Source: Candidatus Borrarchaeum weybense
GTDB lineage: Archaea; Asgardarchaeota; Sifarchaeia; Borrarchaeales; Borrarchaeaceae
Direction: 5' to 3'
Assembly (NCBI GenBank): GCA_019057385.1
Contig: JAHQJS010000004.1
Coordinates: 1,169,068-1,233,067, forward strand
DNA length: 64,000 nt
Below the pieces are notes generated by a model. The model was not told where the DNA came from, made no database searches, and was given only the letters and a program-made list of their open reading frames with translations. Positions within the stretch are counted from its first letter, which is position 1. The number at the start of each line of letters is the position of its first letter. A program made the translations under genes and the position numbers. This document shows positions 26,579-47,372 of the stretch, piece by piece.

Positions 26579-29500
26579 TCAAGCGACTTCCCCTATTTTT
26601 TCGTGGTTCTTTTTGTGAACTTTTTCTTTGATAGTTTCAGTAAGTTCCTTAACCAAGTTGGCAAACTTTTCTCCTTCACTTGCTGAGATCGATTCAAATC
26701 GAAATCTTTTTTCATCAATTTCATTCTTTTTCATCCAGCGACGGAAGCGTTTAATAGCAGAGTTAGTTCCAGAGATATAGTGACAGTCCTGAGGGTGACA
26801 ACCTATAACTGCTACTGCCCCAGCTCCTAGTTTAAAGGCCTCAGAAACAAAATCGACATCAACTCGTCCACTACACATGACACGTATAATTCTTATATTA
26901 GATGGATACTGCATTCGTGAAATTCCTGCAAGATCTGCTCCTGCATAGGAACACCAATTACAACAAAAAGCAATAATTTTCTCCTCAGGTGACTCTTGCA
27001 AGGCAGTACGCACTTGTGTGAGGATTTGCTCGTCAGTGAAATGTCTCATGGTTATTGCATCATTTGGACAGTCAGCCGCACAAACTCCACACCCTTTACA
27101 CAATGCTTCCGTAACTACTGCTTTTGATTCATTCTCTTGCACCTCTTTAAGTATGATGGCGCCATAAGGGCAGTTCTTAATGCAGATTTGACACCCTGTG
27201 CACTTCTCTTCATCAATGAAGGCTGTTATTCCTTCACTTACCACGAATCCTTTCGCCATGGGAATTGACGCCCTCATATCAGCCCCTAGTGCCTGAGCGA
27301 TCGTATCAGTTACTCCTTTTGGCGCTTGCGCACAGCCACAAAGATAAATACCATCGGTTGCAAAATCGAGCGGCCTTAGTTTCATATGCGCTTCTTGGAA
27401 GTATTTGCCTGCGCCTATTGGGATTTTCAACTTCTTTGCAAGGTCTTCTACCCCTTCACTTCCCTTAGTTGCCATTGTTAGTACAACTAGATCTGGTCGG
27501 AGTTCTATTTCATCACCAAGGTATGTGTCATACGTCCTTACTACTATGTCACCATTTTCAGTATAGAGTTGCGGTTTTCTTTCTTTTTCATATCTAACGA
27601 AGTTGATATCATAATTTTCTAATATATTTCGGTAATATTTCTCATCTTTGCCGCCCAGAACGATGTCTTGGTATAAAATGTAGATTTTTGTTCCTGGATA
27701 GATATCCTTAATGTATTTTGCATTCTTAATGGCAGTTGCACAACCGATTCTACAACAACCAGTTATGCCATTTTCTTCCCCTCTAGCTCCCACGCAATTG
27801 ATCATTACGATATTGTTCACTTTCTTTAAATCGTTATTTTTGAGCATATTTTCGAGTTGAAGTTGAGTTATCACATTTTCGTATTTTCCATACCCATAAT
27901 ATCCATCTGCATCTAGTTCTTTATGTCCAGTCGCAATAACGATCGTAGATACATTGAAATTTTTGCGTTGTGTACTTTGAGAGATAGTAACGACGTAGTT
28001 TCCGATATATCCCTCAATATCTTCGATCTCGCTTCCTGTATAAGCTTCAATATTCTTATGACTGCAAAGTTTAGAACTCCACTGCTTGAGCATTTCTTCA
28101 GCGGGGATATCATATGGAAATAATTTATACAATTTTTTGAGCATGCCGCCAAGTTCTTTTTCTCTCTCGACTAAATATACTTTAAAGCCCATGTCAGCTG
28201 CATTTAACGCTACAATAATTCCAGATATGCCTCCTCCTACTACTAGGCATTCTTTTCCAACAGAGAGTTTACTTTCCTTCTGAGGTTCAAGAAGACGTGC
28301 TTTAGCCACTGCCATAGCTACTAGATCTTTGGCTTTCTTTGTGGCTGCCTCAGGTTCATCTGTATGAACCCATGAGCATTGTTCTCTAATATTTGCAAAT
28401 TCAAAAAGGTAGGGATTCAATCCAACTTCTCGGAGAGTGTCTCTGAATAGATATTCATGCGTACGAGGAGTACATGCCGCTGCTACTACTCTGTTGAGAT
28501 GATATTCATTAATAACTTCCTTTATTGTTTCTGCATAGTCTGCAGAACAGAGAAATTGCCCTTCTTCAGCATGGATGACATTTGGAAGAGTTTTAGCATA
28601 CTCGACAATTTCCGACACATCGACTACAGCCCCAATATTCTTTCCACAATGACAAACGAATACACCTATCCTTGGTTTCTCTGTTAAATCAATCTCAATC
28701 TCTGGGGGCAACTCAAGCTCTTTGGTTTCTGTGCCTCTTACATCTTTTAAGGGAATTACAGCTTTGGCAGCAGCAGCACTCGCCTGCGCCACTGCGTCTG
28801 AGATGTCCATCGGTCCCTGACATGCGCCACAAAGATATATACCCTTTTTATTGGTTTCAAAAGGCCTTGAAGGGTCTGCCGCCTTAATGAATCCATCTTC
28901 ATCAAGTTCGATCCCCAGCATTTCTGCAAGTTTGGTATTTCCATCGTTTGGTATAATAGGAGGACATAGAATCAATAGATCTACTCGCAGAGTTTCAATA
29001 GTGTCCGTATCGATATTTTCATATCTAATCAATATATCTCCAGTTTCATGATCCTCTGAAACTTCTCCAGGTATACTTCGAATATATTTTACCTTATACC
29101 TTTCCTCCGCCCTTTTACGATATTCTTCATATCCTTTGCCATAGGATCTTCGATCAATGTAAAAGATGTAGGTTTCTGCGTCTGTTTCATGTTCTTTAGT
29201 GAGGATGGCTTCTTTTGCAGAATACATACAGCAAATTTTTGAACAGTATATTTTTCCTTTTCTTACATTCCTAGATAGAACGCATTGTATCCAGGCTACT
29301 TTCTTAATAGGTTTTTCATCTGAAAGTCTCACTAGATGGCCGCCTGTCGGACCTGATGCGCTAAGCAATCTTTCATATTGTAGGGACAAAATTACATTTT
29401 TGTAAATACCATAACCGTATTTTTCGATAGGTTCTAGAAGTTTGTAGCCTGTTGCCACTATTATACTTCCGACCCTAATCTCAATTATCTCTTCTTTTTG

Positions 29501-45322: not shown

Positions 45323-46369
45323 GTGAATCTATTAGTAGGATCTTACAGGCTGACTAAAGCAGTAAGGGTTCATGGTTGATCCTGTAAGTTGCCCCAAGCA
45401 GACCTAGAAAAGTTACTAGAGAGCATAGAAGTCTATCTACCCGAAGGTTCAGTTAAAGAGAAAATGTTAGCAGGAGCAGGAGATGACGCCGCAGTAATAC
45501 AGATTAGAGATGATCTAGCACTTATTGAAACTGTAGATTTTTTCACACCAAATATTGACGAGCCAATGATTCAAGGAGAAATCTCTGCATGTAATACAAC
45601 TAATGACATTTATGCGATGGGCGCTGTAGACATTCTTAGTGTACTAGTTGTTATGGGTGCACCAACAAATATGCCTTTTGAAATCTCTCGAGATCTTTTA
45701 AAGGGATTTAAAAATTTCTGTGAACGTCTAGGAACACACATTGTCGGCGGACATACTATAATAAATCCATGGCCTTTCATTGGTGGTTGCGCACTAGGTT
45801 TGGCGCACCCAAATAGCGTTGTCTATAATCGCGGTGCAAAAGTTGGAGACATTCTTCTCTTAACAAAACCTTTAGGAACGCAACCTGCGATGGCAGCATA
45901 TCGTTTACTCAAAGAAGAACAACAATTAATTGATTTATCTGAATATTTACCCACTAAAGTAATTGATCGTGCAATACAAAAAGCAATTGAGATAATGACA
46001 ACAACAAACAGGCCAATAGCAAAAATTATGCAGGAAATCAAGGTTAATGCCGCAACGGATGTAACCGGCTTTGGATTGACTGGGCATGCACGTGAAGTAG
46101 CAACACAAAGCAAGGTAAATATTGTGATTGATACTATGCCGATCATAAAAGGAACTAATATCCTTTCTGATCAACTAGGCTATTCATTAATGGAGGGTAC
46201 ATCTGCAGAGACTGCTGGAGGAATGTTACTCTCGTTATCACGTGATAATGTTGATCTATTCAAAGAAAAACTAATAGAAAGAGGAATAAAATCCTTTGAA
46301 ATAGGGCATGTTAAGGAGGGCAGCGGACAGGTGAATATTGTGCCTGATATAAGAATTATTGAAGTTTAG
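45323..46369 (+). CDS. selD: Selenophosphate synthetase, selenocysteine-containing (UGA 45377-45379)
   Basis: In-frame N-terminus YRLTKAVRVHG-TGA-SCKLP upstream of the called start; GDDAAV, TVDFFTP, NDIYAMG, GGHT, LTKPLGT, TDVTGFGL, ETAGG. Confidence 0.95.
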
Positions 46370-46443
46370 ACGGCGCGTAATGAAAAAGACAGAAACCGCA
46401 AGGAGGGTCTTTAGAGCTTTCCACCAATGCAGGTGGCACCGTC
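46369..46443 (+). promoter_or_regulatory. 3'-UTR SECIS-like element with AUGA/GA kink-turn core
   Basis: Outer stem GACGGCGC/GCACCGTC; ATGAA 46380-84, stem AAAGAC/GTCTTT, apical AAA plus CC-GCAA-GG, AGAG 46413-16. Confidence 0.75.
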
Positions 46444-46463
46444 AATATCCTCATATCTAAATT

Positions 46464-47372
46464 CTATTTCTCTCCATAGTCAACATTGCCAAATGCTTTG
46501 TTGTATTCATTGCTGAGTAACTCGTCGACCACATGCGTATACTTCTGCGTCGTAGATAGATTTGAATGCCCCAGCTGTTGTTGAATAACCCTTACATCCA
46601 TACCTCTGGATAAAGCAGTCGTAGCAAAGAAATGTCGTAGTTTATGACAACTGATAGCGGGATTTATACCTGCCAGATCTCGATATTTTGCAACTATATG
46701 TTGAATGGTACGAATGGCAATTCTTTTCCCATTCCTACTTATAAATAATGCATCATTTTCTTCGATCTTAGGTCGGATTTTTAAGTAATCGTTGATTAGA
46801 TCAAGCGCTGTAGTGCTAATTTTAACGTATCTGTGTTTTCCTCCCTTTGAAACAAGCCTTAGCGTTTCCTTTTCAAAATTGATATCTTTTAAACTCAAGT
46901 TATGGATGCCTTTTACACGAGCTCCAGTATAGATAAAAACAGCTAAAATCGCTAAATCACGAGTCTTATAATTTGAATTTCCTTCTTTGACAGTCTCAAT
47001 AAGTTTATGTATTTCTTTTTCCGTGGGAAAAATTGGCAATGTATGATCTAGTTTTGGTGTTTTGATTTCACCCATTGGACTTGTCTTAAGGTATTTCTCT
47101 CTTAACAAAATGTCATAGAATGTTCTGAGAGTCGAAACCTTTCGAGCTAAAGTGGTTTTTTTGTATCCTTTATCGCGTTTTAAATGAACTAAGAAGGCTC
47201 TAATATCTCTTGTTGTGGCATTTATAAGGGGTTTTTTAGTGAACTTGGAGAACAACGTCAGATCGTGAAGATACTGATTAAGGGAGGAACTTGCAAGCCC
47301 TTCTTCAACTTCTTTGATCACACGGAATTGATCGATTAATTCTTCATCAGATAAAACTTTTGTTTCCGACAT
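46464..47372 (-). CDS. xerA: Xer-type tyrosine recombinase
   Basis: SAM-like N-domain; catalytic R (GARV), K (SKGGK), HKLRH, LGH, Y (TQKYT). Confidence 0.85.
   Translation of the reverse strand: MSETKVLSDEELIDQFRVIKEVEEGLASSSLNQYLHDLTLFSKFTKKPLINATTRDIRAFLVHLKRDKGYKKTTLARKVSTLRTFYDILLREKYLKTSPMGEIKTPKLDHTLPIFPTEKEIHKLIETVKEGNSNYKTRDLAILAVFIYTGARVKGIHNLSLKDINFEKETLRLVSKGGKHRYVKISTTALDLINDYLKIRPKIEENDALFISRNGKRIAIRTIQHIVAKYRDLAGINPAISCHKLRHFFATTALSRGMDVRVIQQQLGHSNLSTTQKYTHVVDELLSNEYNKAFGNVDYGEK

Follow-up and report, generated by a model that had tools for sequence, protein, structure and literature searches.

The window, by which we mean the whole stretch of 64,000 nucleotides of the Candidatus Borrarchaeum weybense genome that was analysed, positions 1169068–1233067 of contig C4, contains the gene of selenophosphate synthetase, followed by a gene on the opposite strand.

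45323–46369, plus strand: selD coding sequence (selenophosphate synthetase); the start codon GTG at 45323 is tentative, the stop codon UAG is at 46367–46369
46464–47372, minus strand: XerA-type tyrosine recombinase gene xerA (NF040815, E 2.3e-75), convergent with selD

The in-frame Sec codon UGA of selD is located at 45377–45379 in the context ..VHG-U-SCK.., and the open reading frame with the TGA read through matches the NCBIfam model NF010705 (SelD) with an E value of 4.8e-115 and a score of 384 bits (cut-off 291 bits). Among named records, SelD from a Candidatus Borrarchaeum yapensis MAG comes closest, at 97% identity. Of 400 Asgard genomes searched at the protein level, 234 have selD, and nearly all full-length matches (among the matches listed; about 230 Asgard genomes) contain one in-frame TGA at the same site. 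The assembly, which is 4.18 Mb long with 37% G+C, also encodes SepSecS, with a score of 410 bits, and SelB, with 286.5 bits (cut-off 242 bits). The tRNA-Sec was not detected in this assembly, which contains N gaps, either by aragorn or with RF01852 (best score 39.1 bits, below the 47-bit cut-off). Given the presence of SelD, SepSecS, SelB and several Sec genes, the tRNA-Sec is probably unassembled or divergent. An odd tRNA on contig C5 was considered as tRNA-Sec and rejected; it is an intron-containing tRNA-Asn. Aragorn calls a tRNA-Pyl with the anticodon CUA on contig C7 of the same genome (complement 143743–143811). Judging from this call, UAG may be recoded in the genome as well, and the stop codon of selD is a UAG.

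The intergenic region between selD and xerA is 94 nt long. The stop codon of xerA, at 46464, is positioned 20 nt beyond the end of the SECIS element described below, and a T-rich stretch is located at 46460–46475, downstream of the element. A 241-nt contig from a mangrove metatranscriptome spans 46353–46453, which includes the end of selD and the entire SECIS, with one difference, and then runs into a slightly different downstream sequence from a related strain. Since the contig is strandless and DNA carry-over is possible, it provides no evidence of a transcript end. DNA of the region 46353–46453 is also present in marine-sediment metagenomes from several studies.

The element occupies positions 46369–46443 and is composed of the following parts, all on the plus strand.

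46369–46376: P1 outer helix, 5' strand GACGGCGC; pairs with 46437–46443 with one C/A mismatch (MFE fold)
46377–46378: C stem of the k-turn, 5' strand GU; wobble U46378.G46416 and pair G46377-C46417
46379–46381: k-turn bulge L1–L3, 3 nt, AAU; its last two nucleotides open the AUGA (46380–46383)
46382–46383: 5' GA of the tandem G.A/A.G core; G in 48/48 and A in 48/48 sequences of the orthologue alignment
46385–46390: P2 (helix II, NC helix), 5' strand AAAGAC (MFE fold); preceded by A46384, which is opposite A46413
46391–46406: apical region AGAAA-CC-GCAA-GG-AGG, which fits the type II model of PMC11227280; purine bulge AGAAA 46391–46395, ministem CC/GG 46396–46397 with 46402–46403, tetraloop GCAA 46398–46401, 3' bulge AGG 46404–46406
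46407–46412: P2, 3' strand GUCUUU (MFE fold and covariation)
46414–46415: 3' GA of the tandem G.A/A.G core; G 44 / A 4, then A in 47/48 of the orthologue alignment
46416–46420: C stem, 3' strand GC, then the UUU linker to the third arm (column-pair covariation)
46421–46436: P3 third arm (side hairpin); CCACC 46421–46425, loop AAUGCA, GGUGG 46432–46436, without a spacer before the 3' strand of P1
46437–46443: P1, 3' strand CACCGUC (MFE fold and covariation)

A sequence-only reading of this DNA had described a structure directly after the selD stop codon and about 1 kb from the UGA, with an AUGA...GA tandem G-A core, a short 6-bp helix, an apex carried by the letters now located at 46391–46406, and a CCACC/GGUGG hairpin that makes a three-way junction. 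The layout agrees with this description. The AUGA of the core lies 1004 nt downstream of the Sec codon UGA, and the same three-way junction is formed in the unconstrained MFE fold of the element. The fold has an energy of -22.1 kcal/mol and a z-score of only -1.75, which makes the single-sequence energy weak evidence by itself. The final base of the stop codon is already the first of P1, and therefore each terminating ribosome must unwind the element.

The support for the structure is comparative. About 50 selD 3' ends were read from 11 families, including two one-contig Lokiarchaeia-type genomes, and all of them follow a common plan: P1, [A/G]UGA, P2 of 6–9 bp, an A-rich bulge with a ministem, GA, a short linker, P3 of 4–6 bp, and the 3' strand of P1 0–1 nt later. 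A covariance model built from 48 trimmed selD elements, named R1, recovers 48 elements from 11 Asgard families at E <= 0.01. In the alignment of the 48 elements, 78.8% of cells are paired, compared with 50.0% in shuffles. The covariation score of the 48 elements is 0.727, whereas shuffled alignments give 0.223 (0/500 reach 0.727) and slid registers 0.12–0.20; because the sequences are phylogenetically related, the shuffle counts overstate the significance. This alignment (A2) follows the model structure, which favours the modelled helices; the C stem is exempt from this effect. According to a strict MFE criterion, the junction is formed by 30/48 real elements, but by only 5.8% of flank-shuffled controls. 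All five modelled pairs of P1 change on both sides across the 48 orthologues; P1 is 72.5% paired, a value depressed by misaligned rows of family f7. Compensatory changes are found in 9/9 modelled pairs of P2.

The R1 model is specific for selD. In the Borrarchaeum genome it matches the 3' end of selD only (38.2 bits, E 4.5e-5), and the next best match has an E value of 1.5. A search of 151 Asgard genomes yielded 1–2 matches in each of 48 genomes; those that were compared with selD by their coordinates are all positioned directly 3' of the gene. Families without selD lack R1 matches (f5 0/14, f12 0/19, f21 0/7). Many genomes of family f10 contain two selD matches and two R1 matches about 1.3 kb apart, for example G013:C5:27622-27696 and 28959-29034. 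In these f10 genomes selD seems to be present as two copies in tandem, both followed by their own three-armed SECIS. No Rfam family matches the window at its gathering score, and no SECIS family matches positions 46200–46600 up to an E value of 10; the sole Rfam matches are chance ones on the minus strand. A scan of the Borrarchaeum genome with a descriptor of the full architecture was abandoned, since in this AT-rich sequence it was non-discriminating, with 89 matches versus 59 in reversed-sequence controls and only three known SECIS among them. An earlier, looser descriptor scan of the same genome was equally noisy.

The base of the element has the layout of a kink-turn. Alignment column pairs (9,55) and (8,56), which are outside the model structure, are 93.5% paired in the 48 orthologues, with the pair types CG 30 / UA 11 and CG 15 / UA 15 / GC 8. 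A register test on the alignment supported no other register with two consecutive C-stem pairs. The bulge columns contain A 40 / G 7 / U 1 and, in the next position, U 47 / C 1 in the 48 orthologues. The arrangement, with a C stem that directly adjoins the 3' GA and three bulged nucleotides N-[A/G]-U ahead of the 5' GA, is that of a textbook k-turn. As judged from sequence and covariation, the element is a member of the k-turns, with a C helix, 3-nt bulge, tandem G.A/A.G pairs and an NC helix. It shares these components with standard k-turns of the Kt-7 or box C/D type. Such k-turns are further characterized by a kinked geometry with cross-strand A-minor contacts and by L7Ae binding, which the Asgard element would be predicted to share. 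The -1b.-1n pair is mostly C-G in the Asgard element too. The C stem of the Borrarchaeum element is weak, with one G-C and one U.G pair.

The third arm, P3, is the best-supported helix of the structure. In the selD 3' UTRs of the 48 genomes from 11 Asgard families, 91.6% of its cells are paired and 5/5 pairs change on both sides; the exchange at one pair, for example, is AU 22, CG 9, GC 7, UA 4, GU 3 and UG 1. The loop has the consensus YGCRA (GCRA in 33/48, GC in 44/48), from which the loop AAUGCA of the Borrarchaeum element deviates. The linker has the consensus R-A-Y-U, and a U immediately precedes P3 in 35/48 elements. The side hairpin that the sequence-only reading had listed as an extra is thus real and conserved, but it is not peculiar to this selD locus: it is a general arm of Asgard SECIS. 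A third arm is present in 10/10 non-selD SECIS examined, from five families including that of Borrarchaeum. In the Borrarchaeum genome, two VhuD genes, a gene for an HdrA-MvhD fusion and a Prx-like gene have SECIS with P1 and a 3' side hairpin, as do VhuD genes of four other families. The loops of all ten non-selD third arms contain GCA, GCG or GCC. Since R1 misses the non-selD SECIS of the Borrarchaeum genome, the generality of the arm is established on individual loci and not by the model.

The k-turn core accompanies Sec genes. The Borrarchaeum genome contains 16 genes with FlpD/VhuD domains; all three with an in-frame TGA have an AUGA/GA core at the stop codon, and none of the 13 without an in-frame TGA has such a core within 200 nt. 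The absence of the structure from selD orthologues and from other UGA-Sec genes had been named in advance as the observation that would count against it; the structure is present in both. In the three FlpD-domain genes with an in-frame TGA, at C4:638628-638996(-), C6:371753-372118(+) and C6:186006-186371(+) (L091–L093), the AUGA core takes its UGA from the stop codon, and so it does in the selD genes of family f7 (L022–L033), in which the 5' strand of P1 (AGACCG) lies within the coding sequence. Where the stop UGA is part of the AUGA core, the terminating ribosome sits on the k-turn.

The core and apex of 46369–46443 are those of a published element, the type II eSECIS-like element of Asgard selD, alias SPS lokiSECIS. 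The SPS lokiSECIS was presented in Fig. 5 of Mariotti et al. 2016 (PMC4989117); their text likens it to type II and gives it a stem of reduced length and an additional stem at the apex. The text of Huang, Xiao & Zhang 2024 (PMC11227280) describes the type II eSECIS-like element of Asgard selD as a core, an upper stem, an apical loop and a simple 'internal loop and lower stem', and lists an AGAAA bulge for selD of Sif/Borrarchaeales. The Borrarchaeum element contains the core GA_[G/A]A of the type II model (PMC11227280), usually within AUGA, at 46380–46383 and 46414–46415. The upper stem, for which the model allows 7–15 bp with up to two mismatches, is at the lower limit of this range, with six Watson-Crick pairs and A46384.A46413. 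The bulge (4–12 nt in the model) has 5 nt in AGAAA and 3 nt in AGG, the ministem (2–8 bp) has 2 bp, and the apical loop (2–6 nt) has 4 nt. According to the model, the gene that carries the element in its 3' UTR further contains an in-frame Sec UGA, and the genome encodes Sec machinery; here, selD has such a UGA, SepSecS and SelB are present and tRNA-Sec was not found. In common with the published element, the Borrarchaeum structure follows directly after a Sec selD in the 3' UTR, has the AUGA...GA core and a main stem shorter than that of other Asgard SECIS, and continues from an A-rich bulge into a ministem. The published texts give the element a simple lower stem, whereas here this part is a C stem above a three-way junction, from which the conserved third arm branches. 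Neither the texts of PMC4989117 and PMC11227280 nor that of a 2026 review use the words hairpin, three-way or junction for the SPS lokiSECIS; their figures or supplements may draw the arm. We found no paper that links SECIS with 'three-way junction' in the sense meant here. The third arm, a conserved part of Asgard SECIS generally, is absent from the texts of the published accounts and apparently undescribed.

Eukaryotic SECIS of type II resemble the element in the AUGA/GA tandem G.A core, the unpaired adenines at a set distance above the core, the ministem, and the position in the 3' UTR about 1 kb from the UGA. Helix II of eukaryotic SECIS is roughly 9–12 bp long, whereas that of the Asgard element has 6 bp and the A.A opposition. 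The eukaryotic quartet with its internal loop contrasts with a standard k-turn in the Asgard element, with a 3-nt bulge and a C stem that abuts the 3' GA, and the third arm is a feature of the Asgard element and not of eukaryotic type II. The Rfam models of eukaryotic SECIS (SECIS_1 and related) had no match at E <= 10 in 46200–46600. Methanogen SECIS share with the element the location in the 3' UTR and an asymmetric internal loop made up of purines alone, above which a short G-C stem ends in a small loop. They are defined by a purine-only GAA_A bulge, termed 'kink-turn-like', and three S-S pairs (PMC11881835, PMC13188914). The Borrarchaeum element differs from the methanogen eaSECIS in having AGAAA/AGG and two pairs, CC/GG, in place of GAA_A and three S-S pairs, and the k-turn base with AUGA/GA and the third arm are outside the general methanogen model.

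Two other readings of the third arm were weighed. The side hairpin could be separate from the SECIS and belong to selD or to the convergent xerA, with a role at the 3' end, in stability or in termination, and its location in the 94-nt region between convergent genes, the T-rich sequence that follows at 46460–46475 and the RNA-library contig over 46353–46453, although strandless, are in line with such a role. However, the hairpin is enclosed by the covarying P1, one strand of which is 5' of the k-turn and the other 3' of the hairpin; it is conserved in 48 genomes irrespective of the downstream gene, and it recurs after the Sec genes of VhuD, HdrA-MvhD and Prx. Furthermore, the SECIS core with which the arm occurs, and which was scored here rather than lone hairpins, is missing from the 13 VhuD paralogues without Sec. 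Termination in archaea does not need hairpins, which also counts against a separate hairpin, and we regard this explanation as highly improbable. In a strict k-junction, as known from TPP riboswitches, the third helix would face the k-turn loop directly and be coaxial with the C helix; this reading deserves slightly more credit, but is still improbable. A k-junction has the same topology as the Asgard element, with an extra helix in the non-bulged strand between the GA of the NC side and the helix of the C side, and most elements have zero nucleotides between P3 and P1. Both the k-junction (Wang et al. 2014, PMC4005666) and the Asgard element have a third helix that branches from the non-bulged strand, but the helix of the k-junction is inserted opposite the loop, whereas the Asgard helix branches 2–5 bp lower, after a short linker. 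Between the G.A pairs and P3 there are two or more covarying C-stem pairs and a linker of 1–4 nt. Because the C stem and linker intervene (here a 2-bp stem and a 3-nt linker, 46416–46420), the junction is positioned below a normal k-turn and outside it, which differs from the definition of a k-junction.

The apex was the basis of a third alternative, in which the element is an evolutionary hybrid, a structural intermediate with an apex homologous to the SECIS motif of Methanococcales and Methanopyrus on a eukaryote-type k-turn. Only purines make up the apical internal loop (AGAAA / AGG), beyond which come S-S pairs and a loop of 4 nt, and because of this purine content the resemblance to the methanogen apex is real. 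The selD elements of family f7, with the apex GAAA-CCC-loop-GGG-AA, come close to GAA_A with three S-S pairs. A CCC/GGG ministem is present in some Asgard families other than that of Borrarchaeum, whose element has only CC/GG. The literature contains the converse, methanogen SECIS of VhuD, selD and frhA with [A/G]UGA_[G/A]A at the base, and descent between the two SECIS types has already been proposed. However, the upper stem here has two pairs and not three, the bulges have 5 and 3 nt and not 3 and 1, and the A-run follows a U in 21 of the 48 orthologues, a G in 17 and a C in 10. The apical adenines themselves are conserved, with A in 34, 37 and 47 of 48. Since G precedes the A-run in 17/48 only, the conserved feature is the AAA, as in eukaryotic and Loki SECIS. 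We therefore do not retain the archaeal-type GAA/A apex of the sequence-only reading, and its suggestion of a hybrid or new SECIS variant falls for the core and apex, which had been published as the SPS lokiSECIS (PMC4989117), with AGAAA reported for Sif/Borrarchaeales selD (PMC11227280). A hybrid origin is unlikely, though it is less remote than the two other readings of the arm.

The structure folds as described, is conserved, and is strictly associated with Sec genes. We are confident that 46369–46443 is the SECIS of the Borrarchaeum-like Asgard selD mRNA, a 3'-UTR signal for Sec at the UGA 45377–45379, with the architecture described here. Taken alone, the locus is a modest result, one more member of a published element. 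In this architecture, the 5' strand of P1 leads into the 2-bp C stem, the AAU bulge, the tandem G.A/A.G pairs and the 6-bp P2 with its AAA bulge, CC/GG ministem and GCAA cap. On the return path, the 3' strand leaves the C stem through the UUU linker, forms P3, and continues directly into the 3' strand of P1. By analogy with eukaryotic SECIS, the k-turn would be bound by a protein of the L7Ae fold, and the AAA bulge would contact SelB. P3 would be an integral structural module, which may either fix the geometry of the junction or dock a further partner, a protein or rRNA, through its YGCRA-type loop. An inspection by eye of whether the P3 loop type (GCAA/GCGA) covaries with the CC/GG ministem, as a GNRA loop and its receptor might, showed no pattern.

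The question at stake is how, in archaea, a SECIS in the 3' UTR acts on a UGA that is far away from it. The SECIS of Asgard archaea is taken as a bridge to the eukaryotic system. Eukaryotic SECIS are bound by SBP2, with eEFSec in contact with their AAR motif. The text of PMC4989117 states that no SBP2 homologue is known in archaea, Asgard included. We speculate that Asgard SECIS are three-way junctions on a canonical L7Ae-type k-turn, in which the YGCRA (GNRA-like) third arm might contact the missing partner of Sec insertion, a SECIS-binding protein or an rRNA receptor, and provide tethering like that of SBP2 in eukaryotes; the proposal is tentative, a possibility that we would sooner doubt than expect. 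If the conserved fold has a third arm and a textbook k-turn, current search models for Asgard selenoproteins are incomplete, the arm is a concrete bait for the missing partner, and comparisons with the eukaryotic helix I and internal loop need to be redrawn.

Two further sites in the Borrarchaeum genome are of note. Tandem AhpC/Prx-like genes with an in-frame TGA are located at C4:673325-673702(-) and C4:673994-674377(-) (L075, L076). They have a common 3' structure that is unlike the SECIS of the other genes, with an outer helix GAUUUGGU/ACCAAAUC and an A-rich hairpin that has GAUGA in its loop; conservation between the tandem copies does not extend to the 3' GA. An FlpD/MvhD domain is encoded at positions 26624–26977 of the window (C4:1195691-1196044, minus strand), within an open frame of 1161 residues without an in-frame TGA, which may be a fusion of the HdrA-MvhD type. 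The domain is a Cys-type paralogue of Sec forms encoded elsewhere in the genome.
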